From assembly GCF_013122565.1 (NCBI RefSeq), contig NZ_CP053258.1: DNA of 64,000 nucleotides. The stretch is one strand, 5' to 3'. Shown one piece after another: positions 26,647-36,426 of this stretch; within the stretch, counting starts at the first letter, position 1, and each line of letters starts with the position of its first letter. The translations under genes and the position numbers were made by a program. This stretch comes from Escherichia coli. GTDB taxonomy: Bacteria; Pseudomonadota; Gammaproteobacteria; Enterobacterales; Enterobacteriaceae. The notes under the pieces were generated by a model, which was not told the DNA's origin, made no database searches, and was given only the letters and a program-made list of their open reading frames with translations.

Positions 26647-28050
26647 ATGTCTGACCATAATCCACTGACATTAAAACTGAATCTGCGGGAAAAAATCGCC
26701 TATGGTATGGGCGACGTCGGTTCGAATTTAATGCTCTGCATCGGTACTCTGTATCTCCTCAAATTTTATACCGATGAATTAGGGATGCCTGCTTACTATG
26801 GCGGGATTATCTTTCTGGTGGCGAAGTTTTTTACCGCGTTTACCGATATGCTCACCGGATTTTTACTCGACTCGCGGAAAAATATTGGGCCTAAAGGCAA
26901 ATTTCGTCCCTTTATTTTATATGCAGCAGTTCCGGCGGCGTTAATTGCAACGCTCCAGTTTATCGCCACCACCTTTTGTTTGCCGGTTAAAACGACGATT
27001 GCCACCGCGCTGTTTATGATGTTTGGACTTTCATACAGTCTGATGAACTGCTCGTATGGTGCGATGATCCCGGCAATTACCAAAAACCCGAATGAGCGCG
27101 CGCAGCTCGCGGCTTACCGCCAGGGTGGTGCAACCATAGGGCTATTGATTTGTACCGTGGCGTTTATTCCGTTGCAGTCGCTTTTTTCTGACTCAACCGT
27201 CGGTTATGCCTGTGCGGCACTTATGTTCTCCATTGGCGGCTTTATTTTTATGATGCTGTGCTACAGAGGCGTCAAAGAGCATTATGTGGACACAGCGCCA
27301 ACCGGACATAAAGCCAGTATTCTCAAATCTTTTTGCGCGATATTTCGTAATCCACCATTGCTGGTTTTATGCATTGCTAACCTGTGTACTCTGGCGGCAT
27401 TTAATATCAAACTGGCGATTCAGGTCTATTACACCCAGTATGTGCTGAATGATATTAATTTATTGTCGTGGATGGGATTCTTCAGTATGGGATGCATCCT
27501 CGTCGGCGTATTACTGGTGCCAGTAACTGTAAAATGTTTTGGTAAAAAACAGGTTTATTTAGCTGGCATGGTGCTATGGGCGGTGGGTGATATACTGAAT
27601 TATTTCTGGGGAAGTAACTCTTTCACTTTCGTCATGTTCTCTTGTGTCGCCTTTTTTGGCACGGCCTTTGTAAACAGCCTGAACTGGGCACTGGTACCAG
27701 ATACCGTAGATTACGGTGAATGGAAAACCGGTATTCGTGCCGAAGGTTCTGTTTATACCGGTTATACCTTCTTTCGTAAAATTTCTGCCGCACTTGCTGG
27801 CTTCTTGCCAGGCATTATGCTGACGCAAATCGGTTATGTTCCCAACATCGCGCAAAGTGATGCGACATTACAGGGTTTGCGTCAGCTCATTTTTATCTGG
27901 CCTTGTGCACTGGCAATTATTGCTGCATTGACGATGGGATTCTTTTACACACTCAATGAAAAACGGTTTGCGTTGATTATTGAGGAAATCAACCAACGCA
28001 AAAATAAAGAGATGGCGACAGAAGAAAAAACGGCTTCCGTAACGTTATAA
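26647..28050 (+). CDS. yihO: GPH-family sulfoquinovose transporter
   Basis: 467 aa from MSDHNPL; paralogous to yihP. Confidence 0.8.
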   Translation: MSDHNPLTLKLNLREKIAYGMGDVGSNLMLCIGTLYLLKFYTDELGMPAYYGGIIFLVAKFFTAFTDMLTGFLLDSRKNIGPKGKFRPFILYAAVPAALIATLQFIATTFCLPVKTTIATALFMMFGLSYSLMNCSYGAMIPAITKNPNERAQLAAYRQGGATIGLLICTVAFIPLQSLFSDSTVGYACAALMFSIGGFIFMMLCYRGVKEHYVDTAPTGHKASILKSFCAIFRNPPLLVLCIANLCTLAAFNIKLAIQVYYTQYVLNDINLLSWMGFFSMGCILVGVLLVPVTVKCFGKKQVYLAGMVLWAVGDILNYFWGSNSFTFVMFSCVAFFGTAFVNSLNWALVPDTVDYGEWKTGIRAEGSVYTGYTFFRKISAALAGFLPGIMLTQIGYVPNIAQSDATLQGLRQLIFIWPCALAIIAALTMGFFYTLNEKRFALIIEEINQRKNKEMATEEKTASVTL

Positions 28051-28116
28051 ATGTCAATAGCCGCTATTTCCATCCTGGTGGGTGGCGGCCTCCCTACGTT
28101 TAAAAATGGACTTATT

Positions 28117-28809
28117 ATGAAAAAGATTAATGCAATAATTTTATTATCTTCTCTGACCTCTGCCTCAGTATTCGCTGGCGCATACGTCGAAAACAGGGAG
28201 GCATATAATCTCGCCTCCGATCAGGGCGAGGTTATGCTACGTGTGGGTTATAACTTCGATATGGGCGCGGGTATTATGTTAACCAATACCTATAACTATC
28301 AGCGAGAAGATGAACTAAAACATGGATATAACGAAATCGAAGGTTGGTATCCTTTATTTAAACCAACCGATAAATTAACCATCCAGCCCGGTGGCTTAAT
28401 TAATGATAAGAGTATCGGTTCGGGTGGTGCAGTTTATCTGGATGTTAACTACAAATTTACTCCGTGGTTTAACCTGACGGTGCGTAATCGTTTTAACCAT
28501 AATAACTACAGCTCAACCGATTTAAACGGTGATCTGGATAATAATGACAGCTACGAGATTGGCAACTACTGGAACTTTATTATTACCGATAAGTTCTCAT
28601 ATACCTTTGAACCGCATTATTTTTATAACATTAATGATTTCAATAGCAGCAATGGTACGAAGCATCACTGGGAAATCACTAACACCTTCCGTTATCGCAT
28701 TAATGAGCACTGGCTGCCCTATATTGAATTGCGCTGGTTAGACCGCAACGTCGAGCCGTACCACCGTGAGCAAAACCAGATTCGTATCGGGACGAAGTAT
28801 TTCTTCTGA
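28117..28809 (+). CDS. ompL: Outer membrane porin OmpL
   Basis: Signal peptide MKKINAIILLSSLTSASVFA and terminal aromatic residue (..GTKYFF). Confidence 0.85.
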   Translation: MKKINAIILLSSLTSASVFAGAYVENREAYNLASDQGEVMLRVGYNFDMGAGIMLTNTYNYQREDELKHGYNEIEGWYPLFKPTDKLTIQPGGLINDKSIGSGGAVYLDVNYKFTPWFNLTVRNRFNHNNYSSTDLNGDLDNNDSYEIGNYWNFIITDKFSYTFEPHYFYNINDFNSSNGTKHHWEITNTFRYRINEHWLPYIELRWLDRNVEPYHREQNQIRIGTKYFF

Positions 28810-28820
28810 TGTAAAAATGT

Positions 28821-28850
28821 AAAAAGCCGCTGATATTTAAGCGGCTTTTT
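28821..28850 (+). terminator. Rho-independent terminator after ompL
   Basis: aaaaagccgctgatatttaagcggcttttt stem-loop with T-run. Confidence 0.8.
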
Positions 28851-28989
28851 ACACAGATATTCACAATATAAATAACTCTCCATAATTATATAACTACGTT
28901 GATTATAAAATATTCCTCGTCCTCTCTATCAAAGCCATTGACTACTCGGTAAGATCTTTTCCACTGCAACACTCACAAGGAATGAGAAA

Positions 28990-29838
28990 ATGGAAAAGAA
29001 ATTTTTTATGGATTGGGATAATGAAATCCCGCAAGAAGAATTTATTAACAATATTTTAGCCGATGAAGACCTACCCAAACTTCGCTCTCTGATTATTGGT
29101 CGTTGGGGGGAGTGCTGGGATGAGGAAAGTTGCCAATCGATAATCGACATGTTTGTTGAACATGCTGAACGCTTCACGCATCTTGAATCCCTGTATGTCG
29201 GCGATATGGAAAGTGATGAGTGTGAGATTTCGTGGATAAAACAAGGGGATTATTCTCGTCTGTATGCTGCGCTGCCGAATCTGAAAAAGCTGACAATTAA
29301 AGGTACTCAGGGCCTGGAACTGGGAGAAATCGCCCACGACAAGCTTGAGCATCTGGAAATTATCTCTGGCGGTACGCCGTGCGACGTGTTCGCTTCATTG
29401 CAAAATTCCCACCTGCCTGCGTTAAAAACACTTATCGTTTATATTGGCGTTGAGAATTATGGTTTTGATGCATCGCTGGATATCGTGATGAAGCTGGCGT
29501 TGAAATCCCTCTTCCCGAGCCTGACGCATCTTGGCCTGGTGAACAGCGAAGAGCAAAACGAAATCGTCCGCCGCGTGCTGGAAAGCGATATTCTGCCACA
29601 ACTGGAAGTGCTGGAACTTTCCTTGGGTACACTCACCGACGAAGGCGCGGAGTCTCTTCTCAAACATGCCGATCGCCTTAGCCATCTGAAACTGCTGGAT
29701 TTGCATCATCATTACCTTACAGAAAAAATGCAGGAAAAATTGCAGAAAACGCTACCGATCGAAGTGGATGTCTCATACAGAAATAAACCGCGTACTTATA
29801 GTGATAGAGTTTATATGACTCCCATGTTTACCGAATAA
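28990..29838 (+). CDS. Acidic cytoplasmic leucine-rich-repeat-like protein
   Basis: 282 aa; repeated LxxLxxLxL segments (LPNLKKLTI, LEHLEII, LPALKTLIV, LTHLGLV, LPQLEVLEL, LSHLKLLDL); RBS aaggaatgag. Confidence 0.5.
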   Translation: MEKKFFMDWDNEIPQEEFINNILADEDLPKLRSLIIGRWGECWDEESCQSIIDMFVEHAERFTHLESLYVGDMESDECEISWIKQGDYSRLYAALPNLKKLTIKGTQGLELGEIAHDKLEHLEIISGGTPCDVFASLQNSHLPALKTLIVYIGVENYGFDASLDIVMKLALKSLFPSLTHLGLVNSEEQNEIVRRVLESDILPQLEVLELSLGTLTDEGAESLLKHADRLSHLKLLDLHHHYLTEKMQEKLQKTLPIEVDVSYRNKPRTYSDRVYMTPMFTE

Positions 29839-29898
29839 AGTGCCTATAACAGGAGATGGCAACATCTCCTGTTATTTATCACAGAAAAGGAATTCTTC

Positions 29899-30885
29899 GT
29901 GATTACGCTAATTTGTCATCCTGAAAGCAAACGCACATTTTATTTTTTCCAGGCCGCGTCACGCTTGCAGGAACATATCAACGTAGTGAGCTATGATCAA
30001 GCACTTACCCTGCCCTTAAATAAAGGCATGGTAAAAATTGATCCCCCCTTACATCAGGAAACAGATATTCGCTTAATTAATACGGTTAGCCAAAACTATA
30101 TTACTTTTTTACAAAAAATGGCTAACCGAAGAGAAATCCGTTTTATTAACTCGCCAGAAGGTATCATTCATCTTCTGGATAAACGCCACTGTAAGCAACG
30201 ATTAATTGAACACGCGATCCCGACACCGCCAATATTAGCGGATGATATCCGTAGCTACGATCAACTGATCGCCTGTATGCGCAGCGAAAAGGTTTATCGC
30301 GTGTTTATTAAGCCGAATTTCGGATCAGGGGCCGCCGGGGTGCTGGCATTGAGTTTACATCCCGGCGATAACCGCCAGGTGCTTTATTGCGCCATCCAGG
30401 TTGCAGGTGACAGGCTGGTGAACAGTAAACATATTATCCGCTATGAAAACAGCGATGATATTACGTTGATTGTGAATGCTATTTTACAACAAGAAAATAT
30501 TATCGAATGCTGGCTGGCAAAAGCCAGAGTGGGCAATAAAAGCTACGATTTACGAATAGTATACGTTAATGGCGAAATCGTCTGGCGGGTTGTCAGAACA
30601 TCATCACAGCCGATCACCAATTTGCATCTACAAAATGAAGCTATCCGTTTTGCCGATCTTAATTTACCCGCAGAAAAAGTTACTGAAATTGACACGCTTT
30701 GTCTCAACGCCATGAAACTCTACCCGGACGTACACATTGCCGGGATTGACGTATTACTCACGCAAAACTTAACCCCCTATATTATCGAAATTAACGGCCA
30801 GGGCGATCTTATTTATCAGGACACCTGCGAACAAAACATAATTTATCAACGCCAGATTCAGGTAATGAGAGAACACCATGTATAA
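29899..30885 (+). CDS. ATP-grasp ligase (RimK-like)
   Basis: GTG start with RBS; KPNFGSGAAGV and ...YIIEINGQGDL resemble ATP-grasp motifs; 8-nt overlap with next ORF. Confidence 0.55.
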   Translation: MITLICHPESKRTFYFFQAASRLQEHINVVSYDQALTLPLNKGMVKIDPPLHQETDIRLINTVSQNYITFLQKMANRREIRFINSPEGIIHLLDKRHCKQRLIEHAIPTPPILADDIRSYDQLIACMRSEKVYRVFIKPNFGSGAAGVLALSLHPGDNRQVLYCAIQVAGDRLVNSKHIIRYENSDDITLIVNAILQQENIIECWLAKARVGNKSYDLRIVYVNGEIVWRVVRTSSQPITNLHLQNEAIRFADLNLPAEKVTEIDTLCLNAMKLYPDVHIAGIDVLLTQNLTPYIIEINGQGDLIYQDTCEQNIIYQRQIQVMREHHV

Positions 30886-31750
30886 CGTAACTGACGAAGT
30901 ACCAGAAAATACCCGCACGGCAATCCATTCCTGCGATGGCGAAATCAATATGAATGATTTGATTGCCAGGGAAGCGAACGTTCTGTTTGTGGTGCTTGAT
31001 TCCCTGCGTTTTGATATTGCGTTTCAGGAACAAGAGGCGGGCAATACGCCGAACATTAACCGCTATGGTCGCTGGATAAAGTGCGAAGCCGCTGGCAATT
31101 TTACCTGGCCTTCGCATCATTCGATGTTTTCTGGTTTTATGCCTAAGCCACTGGAAGCCGCACCAGGTCATTCAATGCTCTTTTTTCCCAAAGATATTGG
31201 CTTAGGGCGTTTAGGACCAAAAAATGCGTTCGCATTCAGTGAAGAGACGTGGATTAAGGGGATGGAAAACAAAGGTTACCGCACTATCTGCGTGGGTGGC
31301 GTCTCCTTTTTTAATAACCGTTCAGGGATGGGAAAAGTGTTCCCGGCGATGTTTAAAGAGAGTTACTGGTATCCTAATTTCTCCTGCACGGTGAAAGAGA
31401 GCATGGATAATCAGCTCACCTTAATTAACAAAAAGGTGAACGCTGAACAGCCGCTGATGATGTATATCAATATCGACACCATTCATTATCCGAATCACTT
31501 TTATATTGAAAATGCCAAACCTGGCGATACGGTAGAAACGCATGCCGCTGCCCTACATTATATTGATGCCAGAATCGATAAACTTTTTGATATCTTTCGG
31601 CAAACCAGGAGGGAGACGTTAGTTATTCTCTGTTCCGATCATGGCACCTGCTACGGGGAAGACGGTAAATATTTCCACAGTTTTAACCATCCGATTGTGA
31701 ATACCGTACCCTATTTTCACTTTGTGTTAGACGGCAAAACCCATGAATAA
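30878..31750 (+). CDS. Alkaline-phosphatase-superfamily metalloenzyme (sulfatase/phosphotransferase-like)
   Basis: N-terminal VLDSLRFD and C-terminal LCSDHGTCYGEDG metal-binding-type motifs. Confidence 0.5.
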   Translation: MYNVTDEVPENTRTAIHSCDGEINMNDLIAREANVLFVVLDSLRFDIAFQEQEAGNTPNINRYGRWIKCEAAGNFTWPSHHSMFSGFMPKPLEAAPGHSMLFFPKDIGLGRLGPKNAFAFSEETWIKGMENKGYRTICVGGVSFFNNRSGMGKVFPAMFKESYWYPNFSCTVKESMDNQLTLINKKVNAEQPLMMYINIDTIHYPNHFYIENAKPGDTVETHAAALHYIDARIDKLFDIFRQTRRETLVILCSDHGTCYGEDGKYFHSFNHPIVNTVPYFHFVLDGKTHE

Positions 31751-32981
31751 TGAATCGATTTATCAGCAATATATGTACAGTTACCCGCATAAGACCGCTT
31801 ATCGGGAATTAAACAATATTGCTTTTGCAGATGTGAAGTCGCGTATTTACGAGCATAAAACACATCTCTATATTCATATGCCTTTTTGCCAGAGCCGCTG
31901 CGGGTTTTGTAATCTTTTTACCTGCACGGGCGCAGACAATGCCTTTATCGACAACTACATAGAGGCGATTATCGTCCAGGCCCAGCAAATGCAACTTGCG
32001 CCTGTAGACTGGGCCAGTTTTACCATTGGCGGCGGTACGCCACTGCTGCTTAATGTCGGGCAACTGTCGCGATTGTTTCGCGGGGTGTTTGACGAATTAC
32101 AGGTCGATGCGCAGATTTTTAAGGCCATTGAAACATCGCCTTCCGATACCTCTGCCGAAAAAGTCGCGTTGTTGCGCCAGCTTGCGGTAAACCGTGTCAG
32201 TATTGGTGTTCAGAGTTTTAACGATCTGGAACTTGCCACATTACACCGCCGCCATAGCACTAAAAATGCCCATCGGGCGCTGGAGCTACTGCGCACGGGT
32301 AATTTCCCGATACTCAATATTGATATTATTTACGGTATTCCCGGTCAAACAGCCGCAAGTTTATTGGCGTCGCTTAATCAGGCATTAGATTATCAACCTG
32401 ACGAACTGTTTCTGTACCCACTGTATAACATGCCTCGCCAGCCGGATATGTATAGCCTCTATATTGAAGCCCGCGATCGCTTATTGCATGAAGGTTATAC
32501 GCAAACGTCAATGCGCCGTTTTGTGCGGGTGAATAATGATTCGGCGGTTGAAAGTTGTGGCTTTGAAAATTCGCTGGCGCTTGGCGCGGGCGGGCGCAGT
32601 TACCTGGGCAATTTACATTACTGCACGCCGTGGTCGCAAAACCAGCCTGCATCGCGACAAATTGTCGCGGATTTTATCGCCCGACAAGATAAAACCCTTA
32701 TTAACCACGGCTATGTGCTTTCACAAGCAGAAATGAAGCGGCGTTTTGTTATCAAGAATCTCTTTTTCTATAAAGGGCTTTCGTTACGTGATTATCAGCG
32801 CCAGTTCTCCTCTGAGGTATTAAGCGATTTTCCCCTGCTGGGCGATTTTATCAAACAAGATTATTGCCACCAGCAGGATAATCGCATTCTGCTCACCGCG
32901 CAGGGTTTGGCGCTTTCGGACCAGCTTGGCCCGCTGTTTATTTCCCCGGAAGTTCGCAGGCTGGAGACGCATAAACGATGA
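31743..32981 (+). CDS. HemN-family radical SAM protein (paralog of coproporphyrinogen oxidase; HemW / class C methyltransferase-like)
   Basis: LYIHMPFCQSRCGFCNLF (CX3CX2C) and FTIGGGTPLL, parallel to LYVHIPFCHKLCYFCGC / LHWGGGTPTYL in the canonical hemN of this window. Confidence 0.7.
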   Translation: MNNESIYQQYMYSYPHKTAYRELNNIAFADVKSRIYEHKTHLYIHMPFCQSRCGFCNLFTCTGADNAFIDNYIEAIIVQAQQMQLAPVDWASFTIGGGTPLLLNVGQLSRLFRGVFDELQVDAQIFKAIETSPSDTSAEKVALLRQLAVNRVSIGVQSFNDLELATLHRRHSTKNAHRALELLRTGNFPILNIDIIYGIPGQTAASLLASLNQALDYQPDELFLYPLYNMPRQPDMYSLYIEARDRLLHEGYTQTSMRRFVRVNNDSAVESCGFENSLALGAGGRSYLGNLHYCTPWSQNQPASRQIVADFIARQDKTLINHGYVLSQAEMKRRFVIKNLFFYKGLSLRDYQRQFSSEVLSDFPLLGDFIKQDYCHQQDNRILLTAQGLALSDQLGPLFISPEVRRLETHKR

Positions 32982-33832
32982 CGCTCAAGCAGATCCAGAC
33001 GCTGATTTATCGCGGCGAGATAAAGTCGTGTAATTATCGCTGTGGCTATTGTCCGTTTCATAAACAAGACCGCAATGATAAGCAGCAGGATGAAGCGGCA
33101 TTATGGCGCATGGTTGAGCATTTACCGGCGCTGGGTTCACCGTTAAATGTGTTGATTACACCCTACGGCGAAGCATTGCGTTATCGGTATTATATGGCGG
33201 CGATGGCGGAAATAAGCCGTTATTCCCATGTCCAGGCGGTGGGTATTCAGACCAACGCCTCGTTTAATTTATCCTCGTTGATAGCGACTTTTCAGCACTC
33301 TCAGGGCGATTTAGCAAAGCTGCGGCTGTGGTGTTCATTTCATCCTTCCCAGGTCAGTAAAGAAGTTTTCCTTAAACAGATACTGGCAATTAAGGACGCG
33401 GGGATTAATTGTTCTGTGGGGGCCGTCGCCAACGTAACCGACTACGACACATTCCAGTGGTTACGCGCGCATCTTCCTTCCGATATCTATTTCTGGCTAA
33501 ACGCCAATGAGCGCGATAAAAGGCCCACCAGCGACGAAAGAAATAGCCAGTTTCAGTTGCTGGACCCGCTTTATCCTTTGGAAACCAGCCTCTGGCCTGC
33601 CAATGTTGCGTTTTGTCTCGGCGGCAAAAAGAGCGTGTTTATGAATGCCGAAGGCGATCTCTTCGCCTGTAATATCAGCAAAATTAAAATCGGCAATTTA
33701 TATCAGCAGCAACTTTCATCTCCAGCCTGTATGGCCAGGCACTGCCACTGTTATCTGGCTTATCATCTGCGTCAGGATATCCCGGCCCTCTCACAATTTG
33801 ATGCTGAACGCTGTTTTCGGATCTTCCCTTAA
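32978..33832 (+). CDS. Radical SAM protein with C-terminal Cys-rich (SPASM/twitch-like) region
   Basis: N-terminal SCNYRCGYCPF (CX3CX2C); C-terminal FACN...PACMARHCHC cluster; ATGA overlap with upstream ORF. Confidence 0.55.
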   Translation: MTLKQIQTLIYRGEIKSCNYRCGYCPFHKQDRNDKQQDEAALWRMVEHLPALGSPLNVLITPYGEALRYRYYMAAMAEISRYSHVQAVGIQTNASFNLSSLIATFQHSQGDLAKLRLWCSFHPSQVSKEVFLKQILAIKDAGINCSVGAVANVTDYDTFQWLRAHLPSDIYFWLNANERDKRPTSDERNSQFQLLDPLYPLETSLWPANVAFCLGGKKSVFMNAEGDLFACNISKIKIGNLYQQQLSSPACMARHCHCYLAYHLRQDIPALSQFDAERCFRIFP

Positions 33833-34530
33833 TGATCTGCCGGTTAATCGCGCTCGATTTAGATGGCACATTGCTGAACAGCAAGAAGATGATTTCCCCT
33901 GCGTCGGTTTCGGCACTGCAAAGCGCACAACAGGCAGGCGTGAAGATTATTCTCGCCACCGGGCGTTCGCACAGCGAAGCCCTGCCTTATTACCAGCAAT
34001 TGCAGTTAACCGGGCCGATGATTTGCTGTAACGGCAGCTATCTTTATCATCCGTATCAGCGGCAAATAGTGAATCCGCAACCGCTTAATATTCAGCAGGT
34101 GGAGAAACTGCGAGCATGGTTTTCACTACACTCACTCCAGCCAATTTTGTATACCCACGATGAGTTAACTTTGCAGATAAGCCTGGTACATCGCAAGGCT
34201 TCGTTATTGCGCCAGGCTGAGGAATTTGCCCGGCAAGAATTATCGCTGGCCTGTAGCTGGTCCTGGCATCATCAACTGGATATTACACAGGCGGGGTGTG
34301 AGAAAGGCAAAAGTCTGGCCTGGTATGCACAGCAGCAAAATATCGCTCTGGATGAAATCATCGCCTTTGGCGATAACGATAATGATGCGGGGATGTTGCA
34401 GATGGTAGGGAAAGGTATTGCGATGGGCAATGGTAGCTTTCTGGCAAAAGCCAGCTCTAACTGCGTTATCGGTCACAACAACACTGACGCGATTGCGGAT
34501 TTTCTTTATGCGCAGGGGGTCAGTTCATGA
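33832..34530 (+). CDS. HAD-superfamily (Cof-like) phosphatase
   Basis: Motif I IALDLDGTLLNS; C-terminal FGDNDNDAGM; start overlaps upstream stop by 1 nt. Confidence 0.7.
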   Translation: MICRLIALDLDGTLLNSKKMISPASVSALQSAQQAGVKIILATGRSHSEALPYYQQLQLTGPMICCNGSYLYHPYQRQIVNPQPLNIQQVEKLRAWFSLHSLQPILYTHDELTLQISLVHRKASLLRQAEEFARQELSLACSWSWHHQLDITQAGCEKGKSLAWYAQQQNIALDEIIAFGDNDNDAGMLQMVGKGIAMGNGSFLAKASSNCVIGHNNTDAIADFLYAQGVSS

Positions 34531-34602
34531 CGCATCTTATCAGGTCTACAAAAGCAAAAAACCTGCCATCGCTGGCAGGTTTTTTATGACTAAAAAACGA
34601 AA

Positions 34603-36426
34603 TTAATCGTCTTTCGGTGCGCGGTTAGCGCGACGACGATCGTTTTCCGTCAGGTGACGTTTACGAATACGGATAGAGGTCGGAGTCACTTCTACCAGTT
34701 CGTCATCATCGATGAACTCCAGAGCTTGTTCCAGAGTCATGCGGATAGGCGGAACCAGAACAACGGCTTCGTCAGTACCGGAAGCACGCATGTTGGTCAG
34801 TTTCTTACCGGTCAGGCAGTTTACAGTCAGGTCGTTAGAGCGGCTATGAATACCGATAATCTGACCTTCGTAAACTTCTGCACCGTGACCGAGGAACAGC
34901 TTACCGCGATCCTGCAGACCGAACAGCGCGAACGCGACCGCTTTACCCTGACCGTTAGAGATCAGTACGCCGTTCTGACGCTGACCCACTTCACCCGGAC
35001 GTACGTCGTCGTAGTGGCTGAAGGTGGAGTACAGCAGACCAGTACCGGAAGTCATGGTCATGAACTCAGAACGGAAGCCAATCAGACCACGGCTTGGGAT
35101 CACGTAGTCGAGACGTACGCGGCCTTTACCGTCTGGATTCATGTTTTTCAGGTCGCCTTTACGTTCGCCCAGCGCCTGCATTACAGAACCCTGATGCTGT
35201 TCTTCAACGTCCAGAGTCACGTTTTCATACGGCTCTTGTTTACGACCGTCGATTTCACGGAAGATAACTTTCGGACGGGATACCGCCAGTTCGAAACCTT
35301 CACGACGCATGTTTTCGATCAGAACAGACAGGTGCAGTTCGCCACGACCAGAAACGCGGAACGCATCGGCGTCTTCGGTTTCTTCTACGCGCAGCGCAAC
35401 GTTGTGTACCAGTTCTTTGTTCAGACGATCCAGGATCTGACGAGACGTTACGAACTTACCTTCTTTACCGCAGAACGGCGAGGTGTTAACGCAGAAGAAC
35501 ATAGAAACGGTCGGCTCATCAACGGAGAGTGCCGGCAGCGCTTCAACGTTTTGCGTGTCGCAAACGGTGTCAGAAATGTTCAGTTCGCCCAGGCCCGTGA
35601 TCGCCACGATATCGCCAGCTTCCGCCAGGTCGGTTTCGATACGTTCCAGACCGAGGTGGCCCAGCACTTTACCGACTTTCGCGTTACGGGTTTTGCCTTC
35701 GCTATCGATGATAGTGACCTGCTGGTTCGGCTTCACTTTACCGCGCTTGATGCGGCCAATGCCGATAACGCCAACATAGCTGTTGTAATCGAGCTGAGAA
35801 ATCTGCATCTGGAACGGACCGTCAAGGTCAACGTCCGGCGCAGGAACGTGATCAACAATCGCCTGATACAGCGGGGTCATGTCTTCAGCCATATCTTCGT
35901 GGTCCAGACCCGCGATACCGTTCAGCGCAGAAGCGTAAACGATCGGGAAGTCCAGCTGCTCGTCGGTCGCGTCGAGGTTAACGAACAGGTCGAATACCTG
36001 ATCCACAACCCAGTCAGGACGCGCGCCAGGGCGGTCAACTTTGTTGATAACAACAATCGGCTTCAGGCCGTAAGCAAACGCTTTTTTGGTTACGAAGCGC
36101 GTTTGCGGCATCGGGCCGTCAAATGCGTCAACCACCAGCAGCACTGAGTCTACCATGGACATTACACGTTCAACTTCACCACCGAAGTCGGCGTGCCCCG
36201 GGGTATCAACGATGTTGATACGGTAATCATTCCATTTGATAGCGGTGTTTTTCGCGAGGATGGTAATCCCACGCTCTTTCTCCAAATCGTTGGAGTCCAT
36301 CACGCGCTCTTGGGTTTCGGCACGAGAGTCGAACGTACCGGATTGTTGGAGCAGCTTGTCTACCAGGGTGGTTTTACCATGGTCTACGTGCGCGATGATG
36401 GCGATATTACGCAATTTTTCGATCAC
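34603..36426 (-). CDS. typA: Ribosome-dependent translational GTPase BipA/TypA
   Basis: 607 aa; G1 [12 protein letters not shown]-like architecture. Confidence 0.9.

Follow-up and report, generated by a model that had tools for sequence, protein, structure and literature searches.

An Escherichia coli version of the Salmonella STM4010-STM4015 cassette: a leucine-rich-repeat protein with a conserved C-terminal glutamate and its possible modification by ATP-grasp and radical SAM enzymes

This report concerns a compact six-gene operon found between ompL and typA in Escherichia coli, at positions 28990-34530 of a stretch of 64,000 nt (the window, taken from contig NZ_CP053258.1 of assembly GCF_013122565.1, and the source of all coordinates given below unless a locus is named). 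It encodes a leucine-rich-repeat (LRR) protein (open reading frame 1, ORF1), an ATP-grasp ligase (ORF2), an alkaline-phosphatase-superfamily enzyme (ORF3), two radical S-adenosylmethionine (SAM) enzymes (ORF4 and ORF5) and a phosphatase of the haloacid dehalogenase (HAD) type (ORF6), and its family memberships make it the E. coli counterpart of the STM4010-STM4015 cassette of Salmonella. We propose, with somewhat less than even confidence, that the LRR protein (STM4015) is a substrate or carrier whose terminal Glu is extended by the ATP-grasp enzyme, and that the radical SAM enzymes and phosphoesterases then tailor the product; the narrower claim, that ORF2 acts on the tail of ORF1, is held a little more firmly. 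An unassigned operon has in this way become a specific hypothesis that is directly testable in a tractable organism, namely that the terminal Glu of STM4015 is covalently extended and modified. The cassette is widespread. It is carried by Salmonella enterica and by about 3% of the complete genomes of E. coli, as well as by many Lachnospiraceae of the mouse and human gut and by soil Acidobacteria and Chloroflexota. If the proposal is true, it would describe a new protein C-terminal modification, or a protein-templated biosynthesis, that joins ATP-grasp to radical SAM chemistry, and would supply functions for five protein families at once; if it is not, a near-universal terminal Glu still needs an explanation.

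The gene set itself is not new. Membership of an NCBIfam family was taken as a whole-protein hidden Markov model (HMM) score over the curated cut-off of that family, and all five core proteins, encoded on the plus strand, qualify: ORF1 (28990-29838, 282 aa) for NF038076 (STM4015; 324.7 bits, cut-off 275), ORF2 (29899-30885, 328 aa, with a GTG start) for NF038074 (STM4014; 331.2 bits, cut-off 175), ORF3 (30878-31750, 290 aa) for NF038075 (STM4013/SEN3800; 352.1 bits, cut-off 250), ORF4 (31743-32981, 412 aa) for NF006067 (STM4012; 493.9 bits, cut-off 380) and ORF5 (32978-33832, 284 aa) for NF038073 (STM4011; 301.1 bits, cut-off 200). Nothing separates the five from these families, and the gene order and chromosomal junction are those of the STM4010-STM4015 locus of Salmonella LT2. 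The genes cannot be called unknown, since the five core proteins belong to named families and the crystal structure of an ORF1 homologue has been deposited (Protein Data Bank (PDB) entry 2RA8); the cassette is already on record in NCBIfam, in RefSeq annotation and in that one structural entry. The five NCBIfam models are 'hypothetical equivalogs', named but without an assigned function, and the remark of a first-pass annotation, made from the sequence alone, that the operon could be assigned to no familiar pathway still holds, as it has a place in no characterised pathway and literature searches found no functional study. Full-text searches with the locus tags, with 2RA8/Q64V53 and with the domain combinations returned two incidental mentions only, a sigma-54 site inside STM4013 and the listing of STM4015 as a candidate for positive selection, and nothing functional. 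What does appear to be unreported in the searchable literature is that an LRR protein with a conserved C-terminal Glu is combined with a dedicated ligase like RimK and LysX, with a pair of radical SAM enzymes and with an alkaline-phosphatase enzyme of the Thr type.

The enzyme classes named at first pass agree with Pfam and NCBIfam in the profile-HMM searches of the six proteins that had been suggested as a check, and the motifs quoted in their support are all present: PFCQSRCGFC and TIGGGTP in ORF4, CNYRCGYC in ORF5, DSLRFD and SDHG in ORF3, and DLDGTLL in ORF6. The leucine-rich repeats of ORF1 are only marginal by sequence profile, and became confident through structure prediction and fold search. 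Its AlphaFold2 (AF2) model is an RNase-inhibitor-like LRR horseshoe (predicted local distance difference test, pLDDT, 90.8; predicted template modelling score, pTM, 0.91), and the closest solved structure is 2RA8, the Bacteroides fragilis protein Q64V53 (44% identity, template modelling score (TM) 0.87); the LRRs of RNase inhibitor and of nucleotide-binding LRR receptors (NLRs) are far weaker structural matches. The 2RA8 protein, a structural-genomics deposit, has an extra N-terminal WGR domain that is absent from E. coli ORF1, and its native sequence ends ...YPMITE.

The C-terminus of ORF1 is the feature on which our proposal turns. The last eight codons (29812-29835, plus strand; residues 275-282, YMTPMFTE) finish with Thr281-Glu282 and are followed at once by the stop codon. 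Both residues are invariant, with the stop directly after Glu, in an alignment of 19 sequences that reaches down to 49% identity, and all 82 genome-derived homologues end in [A/P]-[M/V]-[L/M/I/F]-T-E. A search with the ORF1-family profile over 1.84 billion representatives gave 5,138 matches, and tails were read in the best 148 of them (representatives at 50% clustering): 141 end in Glu, most often as SE (49), GE (39), TE (38) or AE (8), and the seven exceptions look truncated. Among metagenome copies of O1 (O1 to O5 being the homologues of ORF1 to ORF5 in the loci of relatives) the terminal Glu is present in about 84 of 85. A consensus anchored at the C-terminus consists of an acidic linker followed by Y/W-R-Y-(V/P/I)-(A/M)-(V/I/L)-(S/G/T)-E, and the linker encoded just 5' of the tail is hypervariable, even between E. 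coli alleles. In 49 multi-domain relatives the extra domains are N-terminal without exception and the tail motif still stands at the end; they include WGR (by Pfam) and, from reading of the sequences, segments that are TPR/Sel1-like, KOW-like or YegP-like, canonical LRRs, and tandem STM4015 modules. That additions are always N-terminal fits a need for a free C-terminus, and these alignments are most simply read as a functional requirement for a free C-terminal Glu. In some loci tandem O1 genes occur ahead of the enzyme genes, which is a substrate-like arrangement, as with multiple precursor genes. ORF1, a cytoplasmic LRR protein, is proposed to serve as substrate or carrier, and this is more likely than the recognition or immunity role first suggested for it, because of the near-universal terminal Glu and the RimK/LysX-type ligase encoded beside it.

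For that ligase, ORF2, the Pfam matches are ATPgrasp_YheCD (6.5e-6) and, weakly, TTL (0.028), and the best NCBIfam matches outside its own family are the RimK family (9e-13), MptN, LysX and CofF. All four of these extend a terminal glutamyl carboxylate. The residues of the ATP/Mg motifs (K138, E203, D217, R219, D284, E297 and N299) are invariant in 31 sequences. In a Foldseek search, for which the ORF2 fold was taken from an AF2 model of an ORF2-ORF1 fusion, the closest solved enzyme was ArgX with LysW (E 3.6e-13, TM 0.76), followed by LysX/ArgX with LysW-gamma-AAA, RimK with RpsF, and LysX; DcsG, the graspetide ligases PsnB and CdnC, and Ddl rank behind this group, although by modest margins. 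A search of the PDB with the single ORF2 sequence found CdnC only (0.007). By profile score and predicted fold, ORF2 is a separate family within the RimK/LysX fold group and not a member of either named family. O1 and O2 are adjacent in the loci generally, including stand-alone O1+O2 pairs, and by analogy with its fold relatives ORF2 is proposed to act on the terminal Glu of ORF1.

Several known systems resemble this arrangement in part. As with LysW and LysX (or ArgX), a RimK-type ATP-grasp enzyme is encoded beside a protein that has a conserved C-terminal Glu after a small residue. LysW ends in ...GE, and its Glu is the attachment point. The soil subfamily of ORF1 ends in ...V[GS]E, and in both cases an acidic stretch precedes the tail. 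The scaffolds differ, LysW being a zinc ribbon of about 54 aa (the yardstick used was an acidic protein of 50-60 aa) and ORF1 an LRR horseshoe of 282 aa, as do the downstream enzymes, which in LysW systems are a kinase, a reductase, an aminotransferase and a releasing hydrolase, whereas the cassette encodes a pair of radical SAM enzymes and phosphoesterases and lacks a releasing hydrolase. RimK with S6 and tubulin-tyrosine ligase with alpha-tubulin share with the cassette an enzyme of the ATP-grasp type that adds amino acids to the alpha-carboxylate of a C-terminal Glu, this function being predicted for ORF2; however, the substrate of RimK is not encoded beside it and needs no further tailoring enzymes. 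In the Pup-PafA system, too, ATP activates the carboxylate of a C-terminal Glu as its acyl-phosphate, and an amine is then ligated to it. The likeness to what is proposed for ORF1 and ORF2 lies in this activation chemistry, whereas PafA has a glutamine-synthetase-like rather than an ATP-grasp fold, Pup is small and disordered, and nothing in the cassette suggests conjugation to target proteins. In kind, the cassette comes closest to the C-terminal Glu ligase systems (LysW/LysX, RimK/S6) combined with radical SAM maturation of precursor C-termini, from which its scaffold and its enzyme set differ.

In the pathway we envisage, the LRR protein would be a substrate or LysW-like carrier and not a receptor, its flexible acidic linker presenting a conserved tail that ends in a free Glu. 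The ATP-grasp enzyme would activate a carboxylate of Glu282 as an acyl-phosphate and ligate an amine, probably an amino acid, by analogy with RimK/S6, LysX/ArgX/LysW and tubulin-tyrosine ligase. The two radical SAM enzymes would then perform C-H chemistry (methylation or cross-linking) on the appended or terminal residues, and ORF3, along with the HAD where one is present, would process a phosphoester intermediate or donor. Direct support exists for the identities of the genes, for a conserved core, for the conserved terminal Glu, for catalytic motifs that are intact and for the structural kinship of the ligase; that ORF1 is the substrate is inferred from these, and so are the sequence of steps, what group is ligated and whether the product remains bound or is released. 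To go further and regard ORF1 as a new kind of protein scaffold, an LRR analogue of LysW or of the precursor of a peptide made by ribosomes and modified after translation (RiPP), yielding a new C-terminal modification or a released cofactor-like molecule, is possible but doubtful.

A number of points weigh against this pathway. Modification of ORF1 is itself a deduction, and conservation of the terminal Glu could result from partner binding (as a plug or ligand) rather than from covalent modification. No releasing peptidase is present, which leaves a carrier cycle of the LysW type incomplete, and the role proposed for ORF3 is vague. ORF2 scores well below the cut-offs of the families that it most resembles (48.2 bits against 143.4 for TIGR00768, the RimK family, and 34.7 bits against 275.6 for TIGR02144, LysX), and a search of the PDB with the ORF2-family profile returned generic ATP-grasp enzymes only (Ddl, cyanophycin synthetase, ITPK1 and RimK, at about 0.002-0.07), so that it fails to separate ORF2 from Ddl or cyanophycin synthetase. 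As a proxy for docking, ORF2 and ORF1 were modelled in AF2 as a fusion through a (GGGGS)6 linker, with a paired alignment of 26 rows; the model reached a pTM of 0.55 and a pLDDT of about 71 in the tail, and showed no confident docking, which speaks neither for nor against an interface. In one locus (L087) the order is O1-O3-O4-O5, with no ligase between O1 and O3. Finally, one of the two tandem STM4015 copies on soil contig L116 (924-1739) ends in ...FIAVGA and not in ...GE; no other complete copy seen lacks the terminal Glu, and this one may be a decaying paralogue.

Three of these points (the missing releasing protease, the fusion without docking, and the locus with no ligase beside O1) would fit a pathway in which the product of the enzymes is small and soluble (a nucleotide derivative, a cofactor or a phosphorylated metabolite, for example) and the LRR protein takes part not as a substrate but as a partner, whether scaffold, chaperone, regulator or immunity or binding protein. 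This is essentially the view taken in the first-pass annotation. It is favoured also by the presence, among the profile relatives of ORF2, of MptN and CofF, which extend cofactors ending in Glu, and by the fact that pairs of a phosphodiesterase-like enzyme and a phosphatase are typical of small-molecule metabolism. It does not explain, however, why the terminal Glu is conserved despite a freely varying linker, why extra domains are never C-terminal, or why O1 and O2 occur as stand-alone pairs, and we regard it as unlikely, though still a serious candidate.

On the proposal that the tail of ORF1 is extended and modified, the later chemistry would fall largely to the two radical SAM enzymes. ORF4 matches Pfam Radical_SAM (4e-18) and HemN_C (6e-4), and carries a CX3CX2C motif at C49/C53/C56 which, together with GGGTP and an N-terminal YxQYMYSYPHKTAY motif, is conserved in the family. 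Its matches to HemW, HemN and ChuW fall below the respective cut-offs (e.g., 123 bits against 325 for TIGR00538, HemN), and in CQSRCGFCNLF the fourth Cys of the HemN pattern CX3CX2CXC is lacking; by these measures it is HemN/HemW-like only, and not HemN. ORF5 is a weaker match to Radical_SAM (8e-4) and to SPASM (0.017), and a single-sequence search of the PDB with it gave no match, while the ORF5-family profile found the auxiliary-cluster (twitch) domain of SkfB (0.0019), BtrN (0.044) and, weakly, PapB. Its CX3CX2C motif (C18/C22/C25) is invariant in 27 sequences, and since it starts at residue 18 there is no N-terminal recognition domain. A C-terminal cluster contains five invariant Cys (213, 230/231, 251, 256 and 258), and the auxiliary pattern C213-x12-G226-x3/4-C230/231, with C251, C256 and C258, conforms to the SPASM/twitch motif CX9-15GX4C. 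The matches are weak, but they point to a twitch/SPASM-like radical SAM enzyme with a pattern typical of enzymes that modify peptides or proteins, for which binding of an auxiliary cluster is predicted.

This architecture (CX3CX2C with an auxiliary CX12GX4C...CX4CXC) is like that of MftC, PqqE and SkfB, and the likeness extends to the conserved target motif at the extreme C-terminus of a co-encoded polypeptide, as in MftA/MftC and PqqA/PqqE. It raises the alternative of a RiPP or cofactor-like pathway (compare mycofactocin, PQQ and the pearlins), in which the tail is modified and then cleaved by a peptidase encoded elsewhere, the LRR domain acting as leader or scaffold. The evidence put forward for a modified tail applies equally to such a pathway, and the tandem O1 copies resemble multiple precursor genes. 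We nevertheless consider it improbable. A folded, highly conserved LRR domain of 280 aa is atypical as a leader, and the sensor-like N-terminal fusions (WGR, TPR) suggest that the mature protein itself functions. The short leader-core precursor, RiPP recognition element (RRE) and protease or exporter by which a RiPP cluster is recognised are lacking: the 'precursor' is large and folded, no RRE/PqqD, protease or exporter was found, and clustering of the neighbouring genes gave lineage-restricted neighbours only, with no conserved protease or exporter near it. The cassette also adds a second (HemN-like) radical SAM enzyme and an ATP-grasp enzyme that these systems do not have.

ORF3, which we see as handling a phosphoester in the modification of ORF1, has matches to Pfam Sulfatase (1.8e-16) and, in part, to Phosphodiest (2e-6). 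Its assignment to the alkaline-phosphatase superfamily stands, but it is not a strict sulfatase. With the formylglycine sulfatases it shares the signature of the Sulfatase-family fold and the SDHG metal motif, and differs from them at the active site: the place of the Cys that sulfatases convert to formylglycine is taken in the alignment by Thr76, and a His stands for the Arg of CxPxR, giving T-W-P-S-H in place of C/S-x-P-x-R in at least 97% of 62 sequences. T76, D41, D200/H203 and D253/H254 are conserved in the same 62, and by motif analogy the Asp and His residues would be metal ligands. A Thr at the nucleophile position, together with the conservation of Asp and His, leads to the prediction of a Thr-nucleophile phosphoester transferase or hydrolase and not of a sulfatase. 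It resembles the NPP/EptA-type phosphoryl transferases in the Thr at this position, but is small and soluble (about 260 aa) and has no membrane domain. The conserved core starts at Met25 (nt 30950), which is kept in at least 97% of homologues and is where the alignment to the NCBIfam model begins; the true start of ORF3 could be nt 30950 and not nt 30878, which would abolish the 8-nt overlap with ORF2, although RefSeq annotates the long form.

The same residues bear on a further alternative, in which ORF3 would be a sulfatase and ORF5 a maturase like the anaerobic sulfatase-maturating enzyme (anSME), both serving the adjacent sulfoquinovose genes yihOPQ-ompL. It has in its favour the Pfam match of ORF3, a weak N-terminal match of the ORF5 family to the anSME model and, in Enterobacteriaceae, the position of the cassette next to genes of sulfoglycolysis. 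It is scarcely credible all the same, given T-W-P-S-H for C/S-x-P-x-R and an anSME cut-off that is missed widely (TIGR03942 gives 23.7 bits against 349 for the Undibacterium orthologue of ORF5, and no such match for ORF5 of the window), and because it gives no account of the LRR protein, of the ligase or of the HemN-like enzyme. A functional tie to the neighbouring sulfoquinovose genes was rejected, the adjacency not being seen in the gene contexts listed outside Enterobacteriaceae.

The sixth gene of the E. coli operon differs in status from the other five. ORF6 (33832-34530, plus strand; 232 aa) is a Cof-type HAD-IIB phosphatase by TIGR00099 (186.7 bits, cut-off 137), with DLDGTLL at residues 9-15, and its score for the pyridoxal-phosphatase equivalog (219 bits) lies below the cut-off of 274. 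The Pfam Hydrolase_3 match falls into two pieces that skip model positions 108-145, and the alignment indicates a deletion of about 36 residues from the cap domain. In HAD enzymes the cap normally determines substrate specificity. The earlier identification of ORF6 as a HAD with DLDGTLL is correct, but the gene is an accessory and not a universal member of the operon, as no HAD was found in any of 24 soil metagenome loci. In Enterobacteriaceae the cassette closes with the HAD as a Cof-type gene of its own; Firmicutes have an STM4011 homologue (median length 504 aa) that carries a Hydrolase_3 domain as a C-terminal fusion; and in Undibacterium an unrelated HAD-IA gene (YjjG/CTE7-like) lies between O2 and O3. 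Tails of the ...TE type go with all three arrangements and the soil loci that lack a HAD mostly have ...GE or ...SE, although one of them (L171) has ...TE; the association is suggestive, yet phylogeny is a confounder. That three different HADs were recruited independently would argue for a step somewhere in TE-type systems at which phosphate must be removed. Among 48 fused Firmicutes domains (e.g., L004, 14110-15606) the nucleophile Asp is invariant, yet the general acid/base at Asp+2 is an Asp in only 23 and is otherwise E, A, M or Q, and many of these domains may not be conventional phosphatases.

The unity of the other five genes is evident from their distribution. Homologues of ORF1 at about 50% identity are abundant in Lachnospiraceae and Clostridia, and clustering at 50% leaves more than 5,000 representatives of the STM4015 family as a whole. 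When species-representative genomes were scanned, 424 relatives came to light, and in the 80 loci kept the order O1-O2-O3-O4-O5 is almost invariant; it holds in about 60 loci of Lachnospiraceae and Clostridia and is found also in Undibacterium (Betaproteobacteria) and in Cellulosilyticaceae. A distant subfamily from soil Acidobacteria, Chloroflexota and others, annotated as 'STM4015 family', keeps to the same gene order: soil metagenomes were scanned with a query alignment of 20 sequences, and all five genes are present in 22 of the 24 loci with at least 5.5 kb downstream, the remaining two being cut by the contig end. Departures from the standard order suggest two sub-modules, since six Eubacterium loci that were checked have O1+O2 only, in L153 the O1-O2 pair is divergently transcribed from O3-O4-O5, and the ligase is missing from the L087 locus described above. 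In a locus from a Hungatella metagenome-assembled genome (MAG; L059, 1157-3061), O2 and O3 form one uninterrupted reading frame of 635 aa, either a natural fusion or an error of MAG assembly, and this apparent fusion, with that of O5 to the HAD in Firmicutes, ties the enzymes into one process. In 11-12 environmental loci (e.g., L090, 6795-7946; L091, 13155-14537) the cassette is adjoined, on one side or the other and on one or the other strand, by a protein with canonical XopL-like LRRs and DUF6745 and by a conserved small protein of about 100 aa; they may reflect lineage synteny or be a further accessory pair.

Within Enterobacteriaceae the flanks of the cassette are, as first reported, ompL and typA, and the same six genes occupy this junction in Salmonella enterica and Superficieibacter electus; orthologues of ORF1 are annotated also in E. 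fergusonii and E. marmotae. A survey of 5,426 complete E. coli genomes confirmed that yihL-yihM-yihN, on the opposite strand, is the usual occupant, being present in 4,238 of them and also in O157:H7, while the cassette is found in 157 (about 3%), always on the chromosome and in single copy. These copies are 95-97% identical to that of the window, none reaching 99%, and the typA-glnA flank of the window is 99.4% identical to E. coli genomes. Subtraction leaves roughly 1,000 genomes with neither the cassette nor an intact yihLMN, so the junction has at least three states. Some junctions retain only a 66-nt remnant of yihN (H33). The description 'replacement cassette' is apt in that the operon is an alternative occupant of the junction, but is doubtful in the sense of an incoming island, given the same location in Salmonella and Superficieibacter; from this shared location it is at least as likely that the cassette is the older occupant and yihLMN the commoner state in E. 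coli.

Compared with the nearest E. coli allele (L001), ORF1 is 85% identical and ORF2-ORF5 are 96-99% identical. Synonymous divergence (dS) is 0.46-0.49 in ompL and ORF1 (28117-29838) and 0.01-0.22 in ORF2-ORF6, with ORF4 nearly identical (0.015), and a recombination breakpoint seems to lie near the ORF1/ORF2 boundary. Diversifying selection on ORF1 was considered and rejected: dS is equally high in ompL and the ratio of nonsynonymous to synonymous divergence (dN/dS) of ORF1 between E. coli alleles is 0.19, which together indicate a recombination mosaic. This result, with the purifying selection it implies, counts also against a role in conflict or in defence against phages, by which the LRR protein would sense an invader, as in NLRs, and the enzymes would make a signal or toxin. 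In support of such a role, the fold resembles the LRRs of NLRs, some relatives carry WGR or other sensor-like N-terminal domains, distribution in E. coli is patchy, and STM4015 is among the candidates for lineage-specific positive selection in Salmonella Typhi (PMC2784778). The PADLOC models, however, give no match for five of the proteins and a marginal one for ORF4 (PDC-M51A, 2.8e-5), the location is a fixed, housekeeping one across genera with synteny that looks strictly vertical, and the gene contexts listed show no evident neighbours of the defence type; a defensive function is very improbable.

The layout of the operon is that of a single unit. Renewed reading of the sequence located the six ORFs on the plus strand just as the first-pass annotation had placed them, with overlaps between stop and start of 8, 8, 4 and 1 nt among the last five and a spacer of 60 nt between ORF1 and ORF2, and the RefSeq gene models of the orthologous E. 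coli locus are identical for ORF1-ORF6. The six genes are apparently co-transcribed, as had been claimed. Its supposed AT-richness is true in part, the GC content of the cassette (46.2%) being lower than that of typA (53.4%) and of the window (50.0%) but higher than that of ompL (40.7%). A hairpin terminator 3' of ompL (28817-28854), found by terminator scan and visible in the sequence as a 15-bp stem with T/A runs on both sides, would mark the upstream boundary of the transcription unit, and a second hairpin from the same scan (34555-34586), between the convergent ORF6 and typA, the downstream one. The spacer between ompL and ORF1 (28810-28989) has 33% GC, and its AT-rich part after the hairpin (28855-28989, plus strand) presumably holds the promoter and 5' untranslated region; it is plausible that this stretch and the two hairpins bracket a single transcription unit. 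A weak sigma-70-like match (TTCACA-18-AATTAT, 28860-28889) lies upstream of ORF1, but such matches are no more frequent than chance would give (12 were found, with 10.6 expected). A ribosome-binding site, AAGGA, is located 10 nt 5' of the ORF1 ATG. In Salmonella, a sigma-54 binding site has been mapped by chromatin immunoprecipitation on microarrays (ChIP-chip) inside STM4013, the orthologue of ORF3, in antisense orientation (PMC3844500). An Rfam scan of 28000-35000 detected no riboswitch or leader 5' of ORF1. At the other end of the operon, a match to the enterobacterial STnc370 small RNA (sRNA) family (34550-34618, minus strand; E 7.8e-6, and 53.2 bits where the gathering score is 54) overlaps the typA stop codon and the terminator, and possibly represents an sRNA derived from the 3' end of typA.

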